Assembly (NCBI GenBank): GCA_001773695.1
Contig: MEXN01000005.1
Coordinates: 67,687 to 131,686, forward strand
Direction: 5' to 3'
DNA from: Candidatus Amesbacteria bacterium RIFCSPLOWO2_01_FULL_48_25
GTDB lineage: Bacteria > Patescibacteriota > Microgenomatia > CAZETR01 > Amesbacteraceae
DNA length: 64,000 nucleotides
Position numbers and translations under genes: made by a program. Below, one piece after another: positions 41 to 45,684 of this stretch; the stretch's first letter is position 1; every line of letters begins with the position of its first letter. The notes beneath the pieces are model-generated. The model saw only the letters and a program-made list of their open reading frames with translations, was not told the DNA's origin and did not search any database.

Positions 41-790
41 GTGGAGGGAAAGTCGAGGGAAGGAGATAGTGTGAGCGGGGTGAGCTTGAAGGATTTACTT
101 GAAGCGGGGTGTCATTTCGGGCATCAGTCCAGGAGGTGGAATCCAGCTATGGCCAAGTATATTTATACGGCCCGGGACGGGGTACATATTTTAGATTTGG
201 CCCAGACTAAAAAAGGGATCGAGGAAGCGGCCAAATATTTGGGCAGCATGGCTTCTGAGGGCCGCGTGATTTTGTTCGTGGGCACCAAGCGTCAAGCCCA
301 GGAAGTAGTTAGGAGGGAAGCGGTGAGACTGGGGATGCCGTATGTGACTGCCAGATGGATAGGGGGGTTGTTGACCAATTGGGAACAGGTGCAAAAGAGG
401 CTGGCTAAACTTGCTGATTTGAAAGATAAGAGGAATAGGGGGGACTTTAAGGTTTACACCAAGCGGGAGCAACTGCTGCTAGACCGGGAGATAGCCAAAT
501 TGGAGAAGTTTTTTGGCGGTGTTTCGACTCTTTCTAAACTTCCTGACGTGTTGTTTGTCGTGGACTCACATAGAGAAGAAGTGGCGGTAAAAGAGGCCAG
601 AAGGATGAACATTCCAGTAGTGGCTCTGGTGGATACCAATGGCGACCCGGCGCTTATTGATTATGTGATTCCGGTTAATGACGATGCGGTAAAATCGGTA
701 GAATTGGTGGTGACCGCAATCGCAGATGCGATTGCAGGTTCCAAGCCACAAATCTCAAGTAACAAACAAGAATCAAGTCCCAATGAATAA
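41..790 (+). CDS. rpsB: 30S ribosomal protein S2
   Basis: GTG start. Translation has the S2 hallmarks LLEAGCHFGHQSRRWNPAM and VVDSHRE...AVKEARRMNIPVVALVDTNGDP. The stop overlaps the tsf start (ATG 783). Confidence 0.9.
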   Translation: MEGKSREGDSVSGVSLKDLLEAGCHFGHQSRRWNPAMAKYIYTARDGVHILDLAQTKKGIEEAAKYLGSMASEGRVILFVGTKRQAQEVVRREAVRLGMPYVTARWIGGLLTNWEQVQKRLAKLADLKDKRNRGDFKVYTKREQLLLDREIAKLEKFFGGVSTLSKLPDVLFVVDSHREEVAVKEARRMNIPVVALVDTNGDPALIDYVIPVNDDAVKSVELVVTAIADAIAGSKPQISSNKQESSPNE

Positions 791-8735: not shown

Positions 8736-9071
8736 ATGAATAGTTGCGTTTTTTGTCGGATTGTGGCGGGTGAGTTGCCTACCCAGAAAGTGTGGGAAGA
8801 CGAGGAGATAGTAGCCTTTAAGGATGTTAATCCCTCGGCGCCGGTACATGTATTAGTAGTACCTAAAAGGCACATTGATAAGTTGACGGAAGCTACTAGC
8901 CAGGATCGGGACTTGTTGGGTGGATTGCAGTTGGCAGCGGCCGTTGTCGCTCAAAAAATGGGAATAGCGGATGGATTTAGATTAATGTTGAATAACGGAG
9001 CCAGCGCGGGGCAAGTGGTCTGGCACCTGCATTATCATGTGCAGGGAGGATGGAAAGGGGGGGTGAAATGA
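8736..9071 (+). CDS. HIT-family (histidine triad) hydrolase
   Basis: CVFCRI..., VLVVPKRH, and the histidine triad HLHYHV near the C-terminus. Confidence 0.8.
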   Translation: MNSCVFCRIVAGELPTQKVWEDEEIVAFKDVNPSAPVHVLVVPKRHIDKLTEATSQDRDLLGGLQLAAAVVAQKMGIADGFRLMLNNGASAGQVVWHLHYHVQGGWKGGVK

Positions 9072-9075
9072 TTTT

Positions 9076-9261
9076 ATGGCGACAGTGGTACACAAAAAAC
9101 CCGGCCAATCAGATGACAAACTTATCGCTGACTTTCGTAAGAAAGTCCTTAATGATGAGTTGATTTTGGAGATCAAAAAGCGGGAATTTTATCGTAAGCC
9201 GTCGGTATTAAAGCAAGAGAGAATTAAAGAGCGCAGAAAAACGCGACGGAGGAGTTATTAG
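9076..9261 (+). CDS. rpsU: 30S ribosomal protein S21
   Basis: 61-aa basic protein with the S21-typical KKREFYRKPS and an Arg-rich tail. Confidence 0.8.
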   Translation: MATVVHKKPGQSDDKLIADFRKKVLNDELILEIKKREFYRKPSVLKQERIKERRKTRRRSY

Positions 9262-9266
9262 GAAAT

Positions 9267-9692
9267 ATGATTTCCGAAAAAATTAGGAGCGATTTGACGA
9301 GTGCCATGAAGGCGGGTGATTCGCTGCGGGTTTCGGTGTTGCGGATGGCCATTTCGGCCTTTGACTATAGAAAGATCGAGTTGCAGCGGGAACTGACTGA
9401 GGCAGAGGGGGTGGGTGTCCTACAAAACGAGGCCAAAAAGAGGCGAGAAGCGATCGAGTCGTACCGGGCAGGAGGACGGGGGGAGCAGGCGAAAACAGAG
9501 GAGGCAGAACTGGCTATTTTGCAGGGTTATTTGCCTTCGATGATGAGTGAAGAGGAAATAAGGACGGAAGTGGCAAAGATGGAATTGCCTAAAGATTTTG
9601 GCGGGGCGATGCGGTTAGTTGCCCCGGTTTTTAAAGGTAAGGCAGACGGAGGGTTAGTGGCTAGAATTGTTGGGGAGATGGTGAGTGGTTAA
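9267..9692 (+). CDS. yqeY: GatB/YqeY domain protein
   Basis: 141 aa. The YqeY pattern (DLTSAMKAGD...LRMAISAF..., ...EAELAILQGYLP) and its position directly after rpsU match the conserved rpsU-yqeY arrangement. Confidence 0.7.
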   Translation: MISEKIRSDLTSAMKAGDSLRVSVLRMAISAFDYRKIELQRELTEAEGVGVLQNEAKKRREAIESYRAGGRGEQAKTEEAELAILQGYLPSMMSEEEIRTEVAKMELPKDFGGAMRLVAPVFKGKADGGLVARIVGEMVSG

Positions 9693-9948
9693 GTATAAGA
9701 CCGGTGATGTTGGTGGTCGGGTATTTGAAGTGTGGCTGGGGGACGAGAAAGAAATGAGAGAGTTGGGGAAGAAATGGATGAAGGACGATGAATTTCATGA
9801 GGTGATCAGTTTTCCTCTAGACGAAATTGGACCGGGGCCGGATGGGGTGTGGAGATTGGGAGATGTAGTAATTTACAAAAGGGCTAAAAATAGGGATTTT
9901 TTTATAGTACATGGAATTGAGCATTTGCTTGGGCGTCATCACGATTGA
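9685..9948 (+). CDS. ybeY: Short YbeY-like endoribonuclease (rRNA maturation factor)
   Basis: EVISFPLDE... and HGIEHLLGRHH match the YbeY motifs SFPF and HxxxHxxxxxH. Only 87 aa, whereas YbeY is typically about 150 aa. Confidence 0.65.
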   Translation: MVKYKTGDVGGRVFEVWLGDEKEMRELGKKWMKDDEFHEVISFPLDEIGPGPDGVWRLGDVVIYKRAKNRDFFIVHGIEHLLGRHHD

Positions 9949-9996
9949 GTAGGAAATTTATACAGTTGATTAGTGAGATCGGGATCGATATAACTG

Positions 9997-11385
9997 ATGT
10001 GGCCTATGACTTTGTATTTGAAATACCGGCCCCAAACTGTTCCTGAATTGGATTTGAAGGCTGTTCGGGAGTCCTTGGGAAAAACTCTTTCTAACAAAGA
10101 CCTGCCTGCCGGCAGGCAGAGTTTGCCACATGCGTGGCTGTTTTCGGGTCCGAGAGGCGTTGGAAAGACGAGTGCAGCTAGGGTGCTGGCTAAATACATT
10201 AATTGTCGGGGGAAGGAGAAGCCATGTAATAAGTGTGATTTATGTTTGGGGATTACGGCAGGGGCGTGTCCGGACGTAGTTGAGATTGATGCGGCCAGTA
10301 ACCGGGGTATAGATGAGATTAGGCAGTTGCGTGAAGGGGTGGGCTTGGCGCCCATGCAGGCTAAATTTAAGGTTTATATTATCGACGAGGTGCATATGTT
10401 GACGTCGGAGGCGGCTAATGCTTTGCTGAAAACATTGGAGGAGCCGCCGCCACATGTGATGTTTGTGCTGTGCACGACAGAGGCGGAGAAGTTGCCGGAG
10501 ACTGTGATCAGCCGATGTACGAGGGTGGTATTTTCTAAGCCTAGCCTAGAGGAGATTGTGGAGAAGCTGAAAAGAGTGGCGGGCGAGGAGAAATTGAAAG
10601 TTGATCATGGACAACTGATATTGATAGCTAAGGCGGCGAGGGGGAGTTTCAGGGATGCCATAAAAATGCTGGAACAGGTGATGCTGGGGGGAAAGTTGGA
10701 TGAAATAGAAGGGGCGGGGGAGTTTTTGGAGATGGGGACTGATGAGGCGCTTGCTTATGTCAATAAGCTGGCAGAGAGAGGAGTGAATTTGCGGACTTTT
10801 GTGGAAAAGTGTGTTGAGGAGCTGCGGGAGAAATTGCTGGAGACGAAGGATGTGAGTTTGATTTCTAAAATTGAGGAGTTGGAGAGAGCGTATGGGAGAA
10901 TGAAAGATGCGGCGGTGCCGCAATTGCCTTTAGAAATATTTGTGATTGAAAGGGCGGGAGAGTCTAAGAGTATAAGAGCTGGAGGGGAAAAGAAGAGTGA
11001 AGGACCAACAATAAAGAAACAAGAACCTGTGGTGGGTGGGAATTTGGGGGGGCATATGCTAGATGATGTGTTGTCACATTGGCCGGAGGTGATGAAGGCG
11101 GTTCGGCCAAAAAATCATTCGGTGGAAGCGCTCCTTCGTTCTACCAAACCTGTCGGGTTTGACGGGCGGGATTTGATTTTGGAGGCTTTTTACGAGTTTC
11201 ATAAAAAGCAGTTGGAGACTGAAAGGTGCCGAGTGATTGTAGAGCAGACGGTGAGTGAGGTATTGGGGGTGGATGTGGTGGCATTGAAGATGCAGCTGGG
11301 GCATGGTTCAACGGTTGCGAAGGCCACCGGCGGAGACGGAGGAGAGGAGTTAGTCAAGGCGGCAGAAGAAATATTTAAACGATGA
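9997..11385 (+). CDS. dnaX: DNA polymerase III subunit gamma/tau
   Basis: Walker A GPRGVGKTS, the zinc module CNKCDLC, and DEVHML...ALLKTLEEPP. Contains the in-frame 18-bp palindrome at 10102-10119, which encodes LPAGRQ. Confidence 0.9.
   Translation: MWPMTLYLKYRPQTVPELDLKAVRESLGKTLSNKDLPAGRQSLPHAWLFSGPRGVGKTSAARVLAKYINCRGKEKPCNKCDLCLGITAGACPDVVEIDAASNRGIDEIRQLREGVGLAPMQAKFKVYIIDEVHMLTSEAANALLKTLEEPPPHVMFVLCTTEAEKLPETVISRCTRVVFSKPSLEEIVEKLKRVAGEEKLKVDHGQLILIAKAARGSFRDAIKMLEQVMLGGKLDEIEGAGEFLEMGTDEALAYVNKLAERGVNLRTFVEKCVEELREKLLETKDVSLISKIEELERAYGRMKDAAVPQLPLEIFVIERAGESKSIRAGGEKKSEGPTIKKQEPVVGGNLGGHMLDDVLSHWPEVMKAVRPKNHSVEALLRSTKPVGFDGRDLILEAFYEFHKKQLETERCRVIVEQTVSEVLGVDVVALKMQLGHGSTVAKATGGDGGEELVKAAEEIFKR
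10102..10119. repeat. Perfect 18-bp palindrome CTGCCTGCCGGCAGGCAG (type A element), in-frame within dnaX
   Basis: Self-complementary. The same core with its 3' flank (..GCAGRRTTTGCC) recurs at 45150-45169. Confidence 0.8.
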
Positions 11386-12014
11386 CCAAGCCACAAACCC
11401 GCCTGCCGGACGGGCAGGTCTCAAGCCACAAATTAATTTTATTGATTGCATACTTGCTAATATTGAGTGTTCCTGGGGTGACGTGGGTGAAAAACTCTGG
11501 GTGGAGTGGTGGGGTGGTTTACGGGTTGGCAAGGCTGGCCGGGTTGTATGCGTTTACCTTGATGACGCTTCAAGTGGGAATCGGGGGGCTGGCGGATAAA
11601 TTGAGGCCGATTTTTGGAGCCAGAATAATCAGATGGCATATATGGCAGGGAACAGTGGCTTTTAGTTTGGCAATGTTGCATCCGGTACTTATGGCTGTCG
11701 TGTTTGGGGTGGGAGAAGTTCTGCGAATGGGCGGGGACGCGGTGTGGGGGAAAATAGCCTTAAATCTTTTAATTATTTCTGTTTTGGCCGGAGCGATGCG
11801 GGCTCAGCCGTGGCTGGTCAGGTATTGGCGGTGGGTACACCGGCTAAATTATGTCATATTGGCGATGGTGTGGTGGCATTCGTGGAGACTAGGGACGGAT
11901 ACTCATACCTGGCCGATGGCGGGAATTTATTTACTGGCGCCGGTGGTTTTGGTTTGGGCTTTGACAAACAAGCTATTGGAGTCTAGAATCCTGAGTAAGT
12001 ATGGGTATCGGTGA
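11382..12014 (+). CDS. Hypothetical polytopic membrane protein
   Basis: Several hydrophobic helices. Its 5' end is occupied by the type B hairpin element, so the real start may lie downstream of 11432. Confidence 0.5.
   Translation: MTKPQTRLPDGQVSSHKLILLIAYLLILSVPGVTWVKNSGWSGGVVYGLARLAGLYAFTLMTLQVGIGGLADKLRPIFGARIIRWHIWQGTVAFSLAMLHPVLMAVVFGVGEVLRMGGDAVWGKIALNLLIISVLAGAMRAQPWLVRYWRWVHRLNYVILAMVWWHSWRLGTDTHTWPMAGIYLLAPVVLVWALTNKLLESRILSKYGYR
11398..11418. repeat. Type B hairpin element CCCGCCTGCCGGACGGGCAGG, flanked by 11-bp direct repeats CAAGCCACAAA (11387-11397 and 11422-11432)
   Basis: The 21-mer recurs at 29849-29869 with one change (A to T in the loop). Direct repeats on both sides were read from the sequence. 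Confidence 0.8.
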
Positions 12015-12270
12015 TGCATTCGGAAAACTTGGAGATATAAACAAGCTAAGACAGCAGGCAATGCAGATGCAAAAGAATTTGTCTGGTCAGGTGATTACCG
12101 TCGAGGAAAATGGGGTGTATATCGAGATATCCGGGGACCAGAGAATTTTGAAACTGTCTATCCAGGGGATGGAGAACCCGGTTCTAAATGATGTTTTGAA
12201 CAAGGCGATTCGAAAAAGTCAGGAGCTGGCGGCGAAAGAGTTGATGAATGTTTCCGGCGGGCAGATGTAG
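12001..12270 (+). CDS. ybaB: Nucleoid-associated protein YbaB/EbfC
   Basis: 89 aa with the typical GDINKLRQQAMQMQKNLSG... pattern, in the conserved position between dnaX and recR. Confidence 0.8.
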   Translation: MGIGDAFGKLGDINKLRQQAMQMQKNLSGQVITVEENGVYIEISGDQRILKLSIQGMENPVLNDVLNKAIRKSQELAAKELMNVSGGQM

Positions 12271-12751
12271 GATTAGCGGGGTTTTTTGGCGAGAGATTTG
12301 AGGATGAGGTAGGAGATGATCCCAATTCCTGATAGGACCCTGGGGTGCTTGAAGGCGTATTCGAGTTCATCCTGGAACTGGTTTGCAAGTGCCTTACCCA
12401 TAGGATCGCGAGGATCAGCGTCGATGTATTTTTTGGTGCGGGTGTATTTGGAAACCAGTGTGAAGATATTGTCTTTTGCAGCTCCGGATTCGATTGGCAT
12501 AATTTTATGGATTAATTTTTCGCGTTTCGGGATCGGTGCGATTGCTAACAGCATCAGCGTTGGTGGTGGGTTGAGAGGGATATTCGTCGATGCACAGGTC
12601 GGCGCGCGAGTCCTTCTTGTATTCGGGCCTTATTTTCGGAAGAAAGATGTTTTAACATGCAGCCAGTTTTGTTCTTTATTCCCATGCCTACCAGATATTT
12701 GCAGAGTTCGCAATTGGGGATGCTCATAATAGAATTGTATCCTATAGTGAC

Positions 12752-13261
12752 GTGGGGGTCAAGGGGGATGTTATACTGAGGGATATGGCTATAAAAGATA
12801 TATTTCCGGAGGAACTGCCTGGCAACGGAGTAATCCGGATGGGTGGGTCTGAGACAATTGAAAACCGGTTTGCGAGAGCGGCTGTGTTGGGGTTGCTGCG
12901 GAACGATTATAAGAAGCGGAAGGAGAGAGGGCAACCGGCTTCTGATAAGAGGTCGGCGGTTCCAGCCTATGGCCAGATTCTTGTTGTGGGTAGGGAGGGA
13001 CCCGATTTGGGGCCAAGTGTGCAACGATTGCTGGGTGAGGAGGATCTGAATACTTCTGAACAGGCGGGGGGGTTGATGACAATCAGTGTGGTGAATATGG
13101 GCATGGATGCGGCTGGCATGGCATTGGATAGACCACAGGGTGAAGAGCCGGGAAGAGTTGTGGTGCTGCAAACGGATCAGGACGGCTATGAAGGCTTTTT
13201 GGGTCTGATGGAGCGGGAGCGACAAGTACTGTCTTTTGCTCTTCTGGCTTTAAGGAAGTAA
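12752..13261 (+). CDS. Hypothetical protein
   Basis: 169-aa ORF on the same strand as the dnaX-ybaB-recR string. The long minus-strand ORF opposite it is low complexity (Pro/His/Gln-rich), so the + strand was preferred. Confidence 0.4.
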   Translation: MGVKGDVILRDMAIKDIFPEELPGNGVIRMGGSETIENRFARAAVLGLLRNDYKKRKERGQPASDKRSAVPAYGQILVVGREGPDLGPSVQRLLGEEDLNTSEQAGGLMTISVVNMGMDAAGMALDRPQGEEPGRVVVLQTDQDGYEGFLGLMERERQVLSFALLALRK

Positions 13262-24522: not shown

Positions 24523-25527
24523 ATGCCTAACCTGTGGCTGGTGTTTACAACTGGGCTTTTGGCTGGGGGAGTGACATGTATGGCAGTTCAGGGAGGTCTT
24601 CTCGCCACTGCAGTGGCGGCAAATCCCAATCCTCAAGCCACAAACCCCAATAAAATCTTGGGGACGATTAGTTTTTTAATCAGCAAGCTAGTTGCTTACA
24701 CGATACTGGGGTTGATACTCGGGTGGTTGGGAAGTAAGTTGCAGTTTTCGCCGCAATTTTTCGGGTGGCTGCAAGCAATTGTCGCTGTATATATGCTGGG
24801 GGTGGGACTATCTATGCTTGGTGTCCACCCAATTTTTCGATATTTCGTGATCCAGCCGCCTAGATTTTTGACGCGGATGGTAAGAAATCAGGCTAAAGCC
24901 GGAACGGTTTTTGCCCCGGCTGTACTAGGAGCCATGACGGTTTTTATCCCCTGCGGCACAACACAGGCGATGATGGCACTAGCCGTCGCCTCGGGTAATC
25001 CGGTATGGGGGGCCGCTATTTTGGGGACATTTGTATTGGGAACTAGCCCACTGTTTATGGGTTTGGGGATGGCAATGAGCAAGTTGGGGGACATGTTTCG
25101 GGAGAGATTTTTGCGATATGCAGCGTGGGTTGTCGTTGGAATGGCAGTGTGGGGTGGGAATTCGGCGGCTGTCGTATTGGGTAGTCCGGTGACGATTCAA
25201 GGAGTGCTGGCGCGGGCGGAGTGTGCCATTAGCTATTGTGAGGGACAAGTGGCGGGAATGGTGTCTGATCGGGTGACGGTGGAGATTAATAAAAGCGGAT
25301 ACAGCGTGTCTAATTCGGTGCGGGCTGGAGATGAGGTTAAAATGACATTGGTAAATACTGATGGGCGGGGATGCCAGCAAGCGGTAACTATCCCGTCTTT
25401 GGGAATATCCAAAATTGTGCGGCCGGGGCAGAGCCAGGAAATTAGCTTTAAAGCCCCTCAGAAACCTGGGGAGCTGTTGATTGCTTGCGCTATGGGAATG
25501 TATACCGGAAGCATTAAGATAATATGA
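24523..25527 (+). CDS. Polytopic membrane protein with conserved TM cysteines and a C-terminal cupredoxin-like domain; probable copper/heavy-metal handling
   Basis: At least 6 TM helices with Cys in TM1 (GGVTCMAV) and in a later TM (VFIPCGTTQ), similar to DsbD_2/CcdA-type proteins. The C-terminal roughly 100 aa is beta-rich with C..C..M ligand-like residues. Followed by copZ. Confidence 0.45.
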   Translation: MPNLWLVFTTGLLAGGVTCMAVQGGLLATAVAANPNPQATNPNKILGTISFLISKLVAYTILGLILGWLGSKLQFSPQFFGWLQAIVAVYMLGVGLSMLGVHPIFRYFVIQPPRFLTRMVRNQAKAGTVFAPAVLGAMTVFIPCGTTQAMMALAVASGNPVWGAAILGTFVLGTSPLFMGLGMAMSKLGDMFRERFLRYAAWVVVGMAVWGGNSAAVVLGSPVTIQGVLARAECAISYCEGQVAGMVSDRVTVEINKSGYSVSNSVRAGDEVKMTLVNTDGRGCQQAVTIPSLGISKIVRPGQSQEISFKAPQKPGELLIACAMGMYTGSIKII

Positions 25528-29044: not shown

Positions 29045-30076
29045 ATGACGGGGTTTTGGAAAAGTTTGTCGCGGCCATTTTGGGCAATGGCGCCAATGGA
29101 AGATGTGACGGATACGGTTTTTAGAAGAATCGTGGCCAGTGTGGGGAAGCCGGATGTGTGTTTTACGGAGTTTACGAATGTAGATGCGATAGTGTATGCA
29201 GTTCGGAATGCGCAAAAGTCTGTCCTCGAACTACCGGTCTCACTGCGTTCGCCGGGATCGCTGCGGGCGGATTTTGCTAGCATTCCTGCACTGCAGAGAT
29301 TGTATTTCTCTGAATCAGAGAGGCCGATTGTGGCTCAGATTTGGGGGACGGATCCTCAAAAGTTTTATGAGGCCTCCAAAATTATAAAAAAACTCGGGTT
29401 TGACGGGATAGACATAAATTTCGGCTGTCCGGTTAGAGACGTGGTCAAAATCGGCGCTTGTTCGGCGATGATAGGAAAAAATTCGCAGGTGGCTGAAATA
29501 ATTGCGGCTGTGAAAGAAGGAAGTAAGTTGCCGGTGAGTATCAAGACCAGGATTGGATTTAAAGCGATAGTTACCGAGGAGTGGATTGGATTTTTGTTGG
29601 GGCAAGGGCTAGCGGCGATTACGGTTCATGGGAGGACGGCAGTCGAGCTCAGCTCGGTGCCGGCGCATTGGGAGGAGATTGGGAAGGCGGTCAGTTTAAG
29701 AGATCAGTCTGAGTCTGAGACTTTGATAGTTGGTAATGGAGATGTGAAGAGTCTGGAGGAGGCAAGAGAGAAGGTTCGTGAATATGGAGTGGATGGGGTG
29801 ATGATAGGAAGGGGGGTTTTGGAGAATCCCGCGATTTTTAATTCTAAACCCGCCTGCCGGTCGGGCAGGTTTTTAATTTTAAATCGAACTCAAAAGTTGA
29901 AATTATTGAATCAGCACTTAAAACTTTGGGAAGAGACGTGGGGGGAACACAAAAATTTTGCGGCGTTTAAAAAATATGTAAAAGTTTATGTCAGGGATTT
30001 TGAGGGAGCGGGGGAATTACGGGCGAGGCTAATGAATGCGGCGAGCTATAGTGATTTGAGGCAGATTCTGGGGTAA
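29045..30076 (+). CDS. dusB: tRNA-dihydrouridine synthase (DusB-like)
   Basis: APMEDVTDTVFRRI at the N-terminus, a TIM-barrel flavin-binding region, and the catalytic Cys region (INFGCP). Contains the in-frame type B hairpin at 29849-29869. Confidence 0.85.
   Translation: MTGFWKSLSRPFWAMAPMEDVTDTVFRRIVASVGKPDVCFTEFTNVDAIVYAVRNAQKSVLELPVSLRSPGSLRADFASIPALQRLYFSESERPIVAQIWGTDPQKFYEASKIIKKLGFDGIDINFGCPVRDVVKIGACSAMIGKNSQVAEIIAAVKEGSKLPVSIKTRIGFKAIVTEEWIGFLLGQGLAAITVHGRTAVELSSVPAHWEEIGKAVSLRDQSESETLIVGNGDVKSLEEAREKVREYGVDGVMIGRGVLENPAIFNSKPACRSGRFLILNRTQKLKLLNQHLKLWEETWGEHKNFAAFKKYVKVYVRDFEGAGELRARLMNAASYSDLRQILG
29849..29869. repeat. Type B hairpin element CCCGCCTGCCGGTCGGGCAGG inside dusB, flanked by 14-bp direct repeats TTTTTAATT(C/T)TAAA (29835-29848 and 29870-29883)
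   Basis: Second copy of the 21-mer found at 11398-11418. Both copies are bracketed by direct repeats, and this one is in-frame (encodes PACRSGR). Confidence 0.8.
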
Positions 30077-45039: not shown

Positions 45040-45684
45040 TCAAGGAGATTGTACCAGATGGATCAGGCGGGCAGTAAGGGTATTGGCCGTGGCGCTTTCG
45101 GTACCCACGACGACAATTTTGGAGTTTACTTTGACGTCGGAAGCTTTGGCCTGCCTGCCGGCAGGCAGGATTTGCCCAGTGTATTTGGTGGCGGAAGTGA
45201 GTTTTATGGTCAGGGTCTGGTTTTTGTTATCGGTTACAGTGAGTTGGGAAGTCGTAACTTTAGTGATGTTTGTGAAGATGGCGCGGCGTTTGTCCGCCCG
45301 GGGAGTGGGAACGACCAGGAGGCGTTTGGCGGTCAGTTTGCCTTCGGCGTCGGCGTCACCCATTGCCAAAACGGTAGTGCCTTCTTTGAGGTCTGCAATG
45401 GTGCCGTCCTTACCACCGGTTAACTTGATGATTGAGTCGGTGGTGACGGTTATGGTTCTGGTAGCGTTGCCTGTGGTAGTCAGGGTGAGGGTGGCGTCGG
45501 ACTTGGAAGAGATAGTACCCAGGTAGGCACGTTTGGAAATTGCCTGTTTAATGAGGTTTAGCTCCTCGTCAACTTTCTTTTTGATGGAGTCACGGATGCC
45601 GCTGTCGGTGGCGGTTGGGGATTGGGCAGCAATTAGAGCAGGAGAGTTTAAGAGTAGGAGAGCTAGAGCCAGGAGAGTTTTCAT
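45040..45684 (-). CDS. Hypothetical secreted beta-rich protein
   Basis: Signal peptide MKTLLALALLLLNSPALIAAQ. Thr-rich repeats. Contains the in-frame type A palindrome, which encodes LPAGRQ. Confidence 0.5.
   Translation of the reverse strand: MKTLLALALLLLNSPALIAAQSPTATDSGIRDSIKKKVDEELNLIKQAISKRAYLGTISSKSDATLTLTTTGNATRTITVTTDSIIKLTGGKDGTIADLKEGTTVLAMGDADAEGKLTAKRLLVVPTPRADKRRAIFTNITKVTTSQLTVTDNKNQTLTIKLTSATKYTGQILPAGRQAKASDVKVNSKIVVVGTESATANTLTARLIHLVQSP
45150..45169. repeat. Perfect 20-bp palindrome CCTGCCTGCCGGCAGGCAGG (type A element) inside a secreted-protein gene
   Basis: Same core and 3' flank as 10102-10119. Confidence 0.8.

Follow-up and report, generated by a model that had tools for sequence, protein, structure and literature searches.

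The 64,000-nucleotide stretch analyzed here (hereafter, the window; contig MEXN01000005.1, positions 67,687 to 131,686) derives from Candidatus Amesbacteria bacterium RIFCSPLOWO2_01_FULL_48_25 and contains, on its plus strand, the dnaX gene (9997-11385; DNA polymerase III gamma/tau, with the Pfam domains DNA_pol3_delta2 and DnaX_C), followed by an open reading frame (ORF; 11382-12014) whose 210-aa product is a membrane protein that matches Ferric_reduct only weakly and below the cut-off. The DnaX protein was 100% identical to one from Candidatus Amesbacteria (Microgenomates, candidate phyla radiation). At the junction between both genes lies a 21-mer, CCCGCCTGCCGGACGGGCAGG, here termed element E (11398-11418, plus strand). 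It is bracketed by two exact copies of the 11-mer CAAGCCACAAA (11387-11397 and 11422-11432, both on the plus strand), with TCT separating E from the right copy, and positions 11380-11440 read CGATGA CCAAGCCACAAA CCCGCCTGCCGGACGGGCAGG TCT CAAGCCACAAA TTAATTTT. An earlier annotation of this stretch made from its letters only (hereafter, the original prediction) had described this arrangement, which we confirmed in the window. E folds into a hairpin whose 6-bp stem (CCTGCC/GGCAGG) closes a loop of 5 nt and is preceded by a 4-nt 5′ tail (CCCG), with folding energies of -6.7 kcal/mol as DNA and -11.1 kcal/mol as RNA. At up to three mismatches, only two copies of E were found in the window, compared to none in 100 shuffles. 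The 11-mer itself occurred exactly four times (at 742, 11387, 11422 and 24634) and, with at most one mismatch, seven times, against an expectation of 2.1.

The start of E lies 12 nt past the stop codon of dnaX and 16 nt inside the downstream ORF. The ATG of this ORF overlaps that stop codon (ATGA), and its N-terminus has a conserved counterpart in an orthologue. E sits at codon 6, where it adds the seven residues TRLPDGQ after MTKPQ. E at 11398 is not intergenic but lies within the coding N-terminus of the membrane-protein gene, which corrects the original prediction, where it had been placed at the junction, immediately after the dnaX stop.

The second copy, CCCGCCTGCCGGTCGGGCAGG (29849-29869, plus strand), had been anticipated as a near-identical copy in dus and indeed differed by one loop base (A to T), being a member of the same family. 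It is situated between two Dus codons of ORF 29045-30076, which encodes a Dus-family tRNA-dihydrouridine synthase, and adds the residues PACRSGR. Two 14-nt units of native dus coding sequence adjoin it, TTTTTAATTCTAAA on the left (29835-29848, plus strand) and TTTTTAATTTTAAA on the right (29870-29883, plus strand). Both window copies are thus found at period-7/14 tandem-repeat junctions, with four heptad-like units at the dnaX junction (GACCAAG CCACAAA to the left of E and TCTCAAG CCACAAA to its right) and with TTTTTAA TTCTAAA to the left and TTTTTAA TTTTAAA to the right of the dus copy.

Filled and empty sites

Five homologues of the membrane protein were retrieved, among them P0243, whose contig (L131) shows the same order as the window, i.e., dnaX followed by the membrane-protein gene. 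The N-terminus of P0243 (MTRPQ-------IPNPKLILL) aligned to MTKPQTRLPDGQVSSHKLILL of the window with a gap opposite E; minus E, the window N-terminus reads MTKPQISSHK, which aligned gap-free to MTRPQIPNPK. At the DNA level, the empty junction of L131 consists of ATGACCAGGCCACAAA directly followed by TCCCAAACCCCAAATTAATTTTA, compared to ATGACCAAGCCACAAA, E and TCTCAAGCCACAAATTAATTTTA in the window, the 21-mer being the sole extra sequence in the latter. Both 11-mers are native coding sequence (..KPQ.. on the left and SSHK on the right), and both have an equivalent in L131 without E, namely CAGGCCACAAA and CAAACCCCAAA, so that the second "repeat" of the window is CAAACCCCAAA in the empty site. 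As read from this comparison, the net gain at the dnaX junction is 21 nt, not 32 or 35 nt. The proposal of a tiny insertion at the 5′ end of the downstream ORF was therefore borne out by the L131 site and the P0243 alignment. The accompanying idea that the 11-mers are a target-site duplication was not: the original prediction had suggested looking in orthologous junctions for the 21-mer plus one repeat copy, and L131 lacked the 21-mer only, with both repeat equivalents kept.

E was also absent from L130 (79% identity), which has the same gene order as L131 and a shorter N-terminus. The E-containing junction was identical in L121-L123, independent assemblies (ENA, JGI and others) from the same organism. 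The nearest DnaX homologues, L124 and L125 (65–68% identity), lack the membrane-protein gene and were thus unusable as empty sites; in other Amesbacteria, ybaB comes directly after dnaX, which made them uninformative for the junction, and the L127 sequence stops at the dnaX stop codon.

With regard to the surroundings of this junction, the membrane-protein gene in the dnaX-ybaB interval and about 1 kb between ybaB and recR, comprising ORFs without a Pfam match, were missing in several related Amesbacteria (window 11382-13261 compared to L124, L125 and L152-L154), in which the order is dnaX-ybaB-(one ORF)-recR. In L121 (303-1169; protein P0044), an unrelated N-terminal segment was fused to the C-terminal half of DnaX, which reflects either a chimeric assembly or rearranged sequence upstream of the junction.

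The window also harbors an unoccupied paralogue of the target motif at 742-766 (plus strand), where CAAGCCACAAA-TCT-CAAGTAACAAA (in full, CAAGCCACAAATCTCAAGTAACAAA) is present with no hairpin. The CAAGCCACAAA repeat belongs to coding sequence that is CA-rich, heptad-like and older than the insertion, and this sequence is also found unoccupied at that position. There, CAAGCCACAAATCTCAAGTAACAAA encodes KPQISSNK (..SKPQISSNK..) in the C-terminal tail of a ribosomal protein S2-like ORF (41-790), just ahead of an EF-Ts-like ORF. In addition, a perfect 16-bp palindrome, CGCCACTGCAGTGGCG (24603-24618), was observed within the membrane ORF 24523-25527, 15 nt upstream of the exact CAAGCCACAAA at 24634.

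In dus, a 7-aa gap opposite E was present in 16 of 16 aligned orthologues (ENPAIFNSK-------FLTLN compared to ENPAIFNSKPACRSGRFLILN in the window). The DNA of L128 and L129 reads GCGATTTTTAATTCTAAA followed directly by TTTTTAACTTTAAATC, and it is between these two that the window carries E. Both repeat units are adjacent there, the left one (TTTTTAATTCTAAA) as in the window and the right one as TTTTTAACTTTAAA, with no 21-mer between them and coding for IFNSKFLTLN. Since the 14-nt units are present and adjacent in the empty allele as native coding sequence, the insertion did not create them by duplication. Its boundaries are unambiguous, with no base common to the ends of E and the opposite flanks.

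One of these two empty alleles deserves comment. Up to the dus insertion site, the L129 sequence was the same as that of the window, and downstream of it resembled L128, with the switch at the insertion site itself; its Dus protein (P0124) showed an internal gap of about 25 aa. L129 was probably assembled as a chimera from two strains occurring together, of which one carries the 21-mer and the other lacks it; because it looks mosaic, the evidence for the dus empty site comes mainly from L128 and the protein alignment. Separately, the hairpin of the dus copy adjoins a native T-run (29852-29880; GGCAGGTTTTTAATTTT), a combination that was scored as intrinsic-terminator-like, and the insertion of E may have created a premature terminator in dus.

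Filled/empty pairs in other genomes were searched for by deleting E in silico from all fetched copies and comparing the flanks against all loci. This yielded six further pairs, all of them clean 21-nt insertions. In L054, E is inserted in a hairpin loop (GGATTCCCGC, E, TTTCGCGGGAAT), compared to an otherwise identical paralogue without it, and the remaining pairs are prophage paralogues (four sites between L149 and L150 and one between L135 and L149), each with a clean 21-nt gap. Altogether, nine filled/empty comparisons (dus versus L128 and L129, the dnaX junction versus L131, and the six others) differed by 21 nt only, and the junctions in dus and in the six further pairs showed no microhomology to the ends of E. 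The original prediction had also proposed checking whether every copy has flanking repeats. Most copies in other genomes were devoid of them, an adjacent direct repeat of at least 4 nt being present in about 5% of the copies (85 copies, low-GC loci), which is an outcome that the original prediction had itself named as refuting the idea.

Distribution, reading frames and landing sites of E

The distribution of E was analyzed in one genome per species, with CCGCCTGCCGGNCGGGCAGG as the query, and in a second scan of metagenomes with the exact 21-mer. E was detected in at least 120 loci of species-representative genomes and in at least 120 further metagenome contigs. The exact 21-mer was found in more than 200 distinct places, in phages and in low-GC genomes labelled as more than 10 phyla, where the labels of contigs from metagenome-assembled genomes (MAGs) are those of the record titles. 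Seven carriers were, by title, Bacteroidota isolates (Flavivirga, Flavobacterium, Mucilaginibacter, Pedobacter, Aequorivita, Aureibaculum and Flagellimonas). The MAG titles comprised many Patescibacteria, along with Saccharibacteria, Planctomycetota, Nitrospirota, Ignavibacteriota, Chlorobiaceae, Elusimicrobiota, Omnitrophota, Margulisbacteria, Marinimicrobia, Synergistales, Bacillota and proteobacterial classes. By our own arithmetic, about 0.1 chance matches are expected at that collection size in DNA of 40% GC and tens in DNA of 70% GC; the matches in GC-rich genomes, often without the preceding C, are plausibly due to chance. At loci with a GC fraction below 0.52, the base before the 20-mer pattern was C in 82 of 85 copies, and the full 21-mer is therefore conserved.

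E was also present in 20 viral stretches. Bacillota MAG contigs (IMG/VR, genome 2820306284: L134-L136, L140-L142, L149 and L150; also L026) contained 27 exact copies in about 80 kb, and a prophage stretch of that MAG, with genes for terminase, tail sheath and head-tail connector, harbored 10 copies in 14 kb, five in plus and five in minus orientation. The prophage copies are located in structural genes in both orientations, and paralogous genes differ from each other in whether they carry a given single copy, a pattern that resembles a recent burst. When E in tandem was queried by blastn against cultured phages (INPHARED), the matches were only weak and close to chance level.

Decayed copies of E with one to four substitutions, mostly transitions, were found beside exact ones, and variants of the same architecture occurred in the same loci. 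Other GC-rich hairpins (TCCGCC-NNN-GGCGGA, GTCATCCTGAGCG...GTCGAAGG and CCYTCTC-CAAAG-GAGARGG) recurred across unrelated genomes, either adjoining E or interrupted by it (L011, L064, L076, L085, L096, L116; L016, L069, L107, L108, L114; L038, L046, L083; L015). Their recurrence suggests that a broader group of hairpin repeats exists across phyla, with its members nesting in each other. No sign of a larger master element was seen when flanks were compared with each other by blastn, as no conserved sequence surrounded E between genomes.

A related palindrome, termed family A, occurs twice in the window. The perfect 20-bp palindrome CCTGCCTGCCGGCAGGCAGG (45150-45169) lies in the minus-strand ORF 45040-45684, which has a weak DUF5666 match, and is read as LPAGRQ. 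Within dnaX, a 21-nt in-frame family A insert (10102-10122, plus strand) is read as LPAGRQS and forms a one-mismatch palindrome, CCTGCCTGCCGGCAGGCAGA, at 10101-10120. This dnaX segment was present in the window, P0012 and P0030, and missing in 12 of the 14 orthologues covering the region, including P0014, which is close to P0012. At the DNA level, a 21-nt indel was observed at the same dnaX codon in all three carriers, which belong to separate Amesbacteria lineages (L152, L153 and L154 were compared). Each of these inserts begins with CTGCC and is followed in two of the three (the window and L152) by a native TTGCC, a microhomology that sets them apart from the E insertions. Such a pattern reflects either a single hotspot at which the insert was gained repeatedly or its precise loss on several occasions. 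Family A was also found in viral contigs.

E comprises seven codons and is stop-free in all six frames. In low-GC loci, 71% of the copies were located in stop-free frames of at least 450 nt, compared to 82% of random sites, and in the pooled set 78% were in frames of at least 300 nt, compared to 88% of random sites. The six readings were unevenly used among the 71 copies assigned to a frame: RLPDGQ 25, PARPAGG 16, PPAGRA 14, PACRTGR 7, LPVRQA 6 and CPSGRR 3. Readings containing Cys were thus the rarest (10 of 71), and the sense orientation was favored (46 versus 25). This uneven usage of frames and orientations fits translation of E and purifying selection on the resulting peptides.

With regard to its landing sites, E was most often inserted between A and T, in 24% of the copies of a first set (8% in controls) and in 23% of a second one, where this junction was again the commonest; insertion between two G residues accounted for 21% in the first set, compared to 4.5% in controls. 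Position -1 was a purine in 85 of 112 copies and rarely T, and position +1 was rarely C. Pre-existing hairpin loops were the target in 16% of the copies, compared to 2% of random sites, and in 10%, compared to 2.6%, in the second set. The usual arrangement is 5′ arm, loop, E and 3′ arm, for which the L054 pair provides filled/empty proof. When nested in another copy of itself, E always splits it into CCCGCCTGCCG and GACGGGCAGG, and it was also found in family A and other hairpins.

A second preference concerned tandem repeats (loci L001-L120, L132-L151 and L189-L308, plus both window copies). In the first set, period-7 repeats (at least 5 of 7 positions matching) were present at 12.5% of the E sites and period-14 repeats (at least 10 of 14 matching) at 6.2%, compared to 2.2% and 0.1% in controls, respectively. 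These values rose to 25.3% (controls, 2.1%) and 10.3% (controls, 0.2%) in an independent set of 87 new copies, in which periods 8–13, 15 and 16 were at or near control levels. The preference also held within long open frames (20.5% versus 2.0%). Overall, E was located between repeats with a period of exactly 7 or 14 some ten to fifty times as often as random sites were. Because empty sites already hold the repeats, it represents a choice of site and not a duplication. The length of E itself equals three times 7 nt.

The D-arm hairpin of 5′ tRNA-gene fragments was also hit, by the 21-mer in L053 (4535-4610) and by the 20-bp palindrome in L185 (490-560), and these fragments may be remnants of attachment sites. 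A tRNA intron was considered and rejected, since both targets are gene fragments that were not called by ARAGORN.

Nature of the element and routes of insertion

We consider it likely that the 21-mer at the dnaX junction represents an insertion element that is ultra-small, GC-rich, hairpin-forming, frame-neutral and selfish, and of which it is one copy. It was added as exactly 21 bp, with neither a target-site duplication nor microhomology, to the N-terminal coding region of the membrane-protein gene. As selfish DNA it would have no role at this locus and would persist through its frame neutrality and tolerant landing places, TRLPDGQ being added to a presumably cytoplasmic tail and PACRSGR in a Dus linker. 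At 11398, E is most simply read as a passenger that is tolerated there and extends a terminal tail by seven residues. Integration may take place into transiently single-stranded DNA, such as hairpin loops and slipped tandem repeats, through an activity that acts in trans and without leaving a duplication, with phages as a possible vehicle between hosts.

Several observations weigh against this interpretation or limit its reach. For the dnaX junction, the nearest empty site is that of a distant orthologue (L131, 58% amino-acid identity), the flanking repeats are identical at 11 of 11 positions in the filled allele compared to 8 of 11 in L131, and a metagenome scan for a same-species allele without E, using ATGACCARGCCACAAATCYCAARCC, gave 0 matches. 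That E is read through, as its length in whole codons and lack of stops would allow, is inferred from the reading frames; its copy number in the host is known from the 64-kb window, and its spread across phyla depends in part on record titles. No mobilizing gene was recognized when the ORFs within about 4 kb of some 150 copies were clustered all against all, which returned only generic families (histidine kinases and response regulators, ABC ATPases, short-chain dehydrogenases), and viral contigs from different samples that are rich in E or in family A have no candidate mobilizer in common. Finally, the flank composition showed no target consensus of 4–5 nt, both orientations coexist within one 14-kb stretch, which argues against a strict replication-strand bias, and the period 7/14 preference is predicted by no single-strand model.

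As to how insertion proceeds, the exact boundaries, the lack of duplication and microhomology, the hairpin core and the single-strand-exposing targets point to a cut-and-join activity that would act on single strands in trans, with IS200/IS605 and REP-RAYT as its nearest precedents. We propose an HUH/IS200-like or other single-strand mechanism only tentatively and regard it as rather unlikely in itself.

The insertion mechanism might alternatively be free of any dedicated enzyme, with template switching (copy-choice) at stalled forks or short-repeat gene conversion copying E into non-B DNA. Such a process would suit targets such as hairpins and tandem repeats, which stall forks, and the failure to find a mobilizer gene near E copies; the family A inserts in dnaX, with CTGCC at their start and TTGCC thereafter, display a microhomology, and the closest analogue of E, the GC clusters of yeast mitochondria, also have no known enzyme (PMC4478555). 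Yet E junctions share no microhomology with the ends of E, template switching would hardly produce boundaries of exactly 21 nt in all nine pairs, and a vehicle would still be needed for entry into new phyla. We therefore regard enzyme-free spread as doubtful.

That E is a functional hairpin of this junction, be it a terminator or attenuator, an mRNA stabilizer, a brake on translational coupling between dnaX and the membrane-protein gene, or a protein-binding site, is improbable. Its position shortly after the dnaX stop and within the first codons of the next ORF, the stability of its RNA hairpin and the terminator-like score of the dus copy together with its native T-run would accord with such a role. 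However, no T-run follows the copy at 11398 and no terminator-like site was called in 11000-12100, for which reason a terminator at the dnaX junction was rejected. Furthermore, the orthologous junctions in L130 and L131 do without E, it is found mid-gene in hundreds of unrelated genes and in all six frames, and no Rfam family matched it (0 matches at E ≤ 10 in 9000-13000).

Removal of E from the RNA, or its bypass by ribosomes, in the manner of a mini-intron or a "byp"-like element that is never translated, is very improbable. A stable hairpin, the copies in the D-arm of tRNA-gene fragments and the favored sense orientation speak for it. On the other side, both families add exactly 21 nt and E is free of stops in every frame, properties that matter only if it is translated; the rarity of the Cys frames suggests selection on the peptide, and the tRNA-like targets are the uncalled fragments mentioned above.

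A miniature transposon generating a target-site duplication of 11–14 bp upon insertion, as in the original prediction, is extremely improbable. It drew on the exact 11-mers bracketing the hairpin, to which can be added the 14-nt repeats that bracket the dus copy with the same 35-nt period and a minority of other copies abutted at both ends by perfect 7-nt repeats. However, the empty sites contain both repeat units without E, the net insertion was 21 nt in all nine comparisons, and most copies have no flanking repeat at all. Moreover, insertions of 32 or 35 nt would break the reading frames, which are intact and gap-free in relation to the orthologues, and even the perfect CAGATTG repeat on either side of E in L103 is in a frame that, as we read it, is compatible only with a gain of 21 nt. 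A chance palindrome or an artefact of assembly or library, to which the plausibly fortuitous matches in high-GC genomes, many without the preceding C, might be attributed, can be given practically no weight in view of the two window copies with none expected, the identical junction in independent ENA, JGI and other assemblies, and the host-specific in-frame contexts of the copies in isolate genomes.

More broadly, E, CCTGCCTGCCGGCAGGCAGG and others could constitute an undescribed class of 20–21 bp frame-neutral hairpin elements that move across phyla, probably via phages, and insert without duplication into hairpin loops and 7-nt-repeat junctions, by a mechanism working in seven-nucleotide units that would match no known transposase or recombinase. 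They would then possibly be the smallest mobile DNA known. We offer this as a tentative proposal that falls somewhat short of being probable.

Comparison with described repeats and implications

[quoted passage not shown] We class E with the "selfish palindromic repeat" kind, outside any named family.

E resembles the REPs mobilized in REP/RAYT systems (RAYT, REP-associated tyrosine transposase) in being a GC-rich imperfect palindrome of the 20–40 bp range, with a 4-nt 5′ head before the stem, many dispersed copies, no transposon-type terminal inverted repeats and no target duplication. However, REPs are described as carrying a GTAG or CGTC tetranucleotide head (PMC3733652), whereas E begins with CCCG, ends with CAGG and has neither motif. 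REPs are also extragenic and lineage-specific, in contrast to the mostly intragenic location of E and its identity across phyla, and no RAYT gene and no recurrent family other than generic ones was seen in the neighborhoods of about 150 E copies. RAYT genes encode IS200-like Y1 transposases and are often flanked by REPs.

RPEs, of which ten families of about 150 bp are known, in Rickettsia only (PMC10969869), are likewise palindromic selfish DNA inserted in-frame in unrelated protein-coding genes and translated as extra peptide segments, as E would be according to its reading frames. They are, however, about 100–150 bp long and encode a conserved peptide module, whereas E is a single 21-bp sequence used in six frames by many phyla and by phages. 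The GC clusters of yeast mitochondria (e.g., GC42), for which a putative AG target duplication has been described (PMC4478555), are GC-rich hairpins in AT-richer genomes that nest, merge and shuffle, with stems conserved over loops, as is the case for E. They differ from it in being 30–50 bp long, organellar and mostly intergenic, while E is duplication-free, bacterial or phage-borne, and intragenic. MITEs are mostly intergenic (PMC10969869) and consist of terminal inverted repeats with internal sequence, about 50–500 bp in total; E, by contrast, is a single 21-bp hairpin that left no target-site duplication in nine comparisons, with 71–78% of its copies in long stop-free frames and both window copies intragenic.

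Duplication-free insertion is common to E and the HUH elements, which include the "peel-and-paste" elements IS200/IS605 as well as IS91 and Helitrons, and E would also share their dependence on a DNA hairpin and their single-stranded targets. IS200/IS605-type elements, whose TnpA (Y1 HUH) is supplied in cis or in trans, insert 3′ of a fixed 4–5-nt target and have two different ends of tens of nt and a replication-strand bias, whereas E has no target consensus and a single hairpin; its copies were seen in both orientations within 14 kb. The commonest junction of E, between A and T, is also the one used by Helitrons. As for intrinsic terminators, the copy at 11398 lacks a T-run and the dus copy qualifies only through its native one. 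The flanks of a fifth to a quarter of the E copies, including those of both window copies, are short tandem repeats of period 7 and as such reminiscent of the heptanucleotide tandem repeats (STRR) of cyanobacteria; the repeats are nevertheless a preferred landing site of E and not part of it, and we know of no case in which hairpin inserts have been associated with STRRs.

If our interpretation is correct, hairpins of this type that lie where two genes meet ought not to be annotated as terminators or as signals between genes. Duplication-free insertion combined with a replicated preference for period 7/14 tandem repeats would then pose a mechanistic problem, which is open to experiment because several carriers are cultivable Bacteroidota (Flavivirga sp. 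57AJ16, Mucilaginibacter sp. PPCGB 2223, Aequorivita capsosiphonis DSM 23843, Pedobacter frigiditerrae RP-1-13 and Flavobacterium soyangense). E-type elements would colonize even essential genes, here dnaX (family A) and dus, because they are short, stop-free and a multiple of three in length, and they would account for 7-residue indels (LPAGRQ, RLPDGQ, PPAGRA and others) in protein alignments of uncultured bacteria. Copies of E would, moreover, be markers of very recent horizontal contact between lineages, and a sequence of only 21 bases would be able to act as a mobile element across bacterial phyla and their phages.

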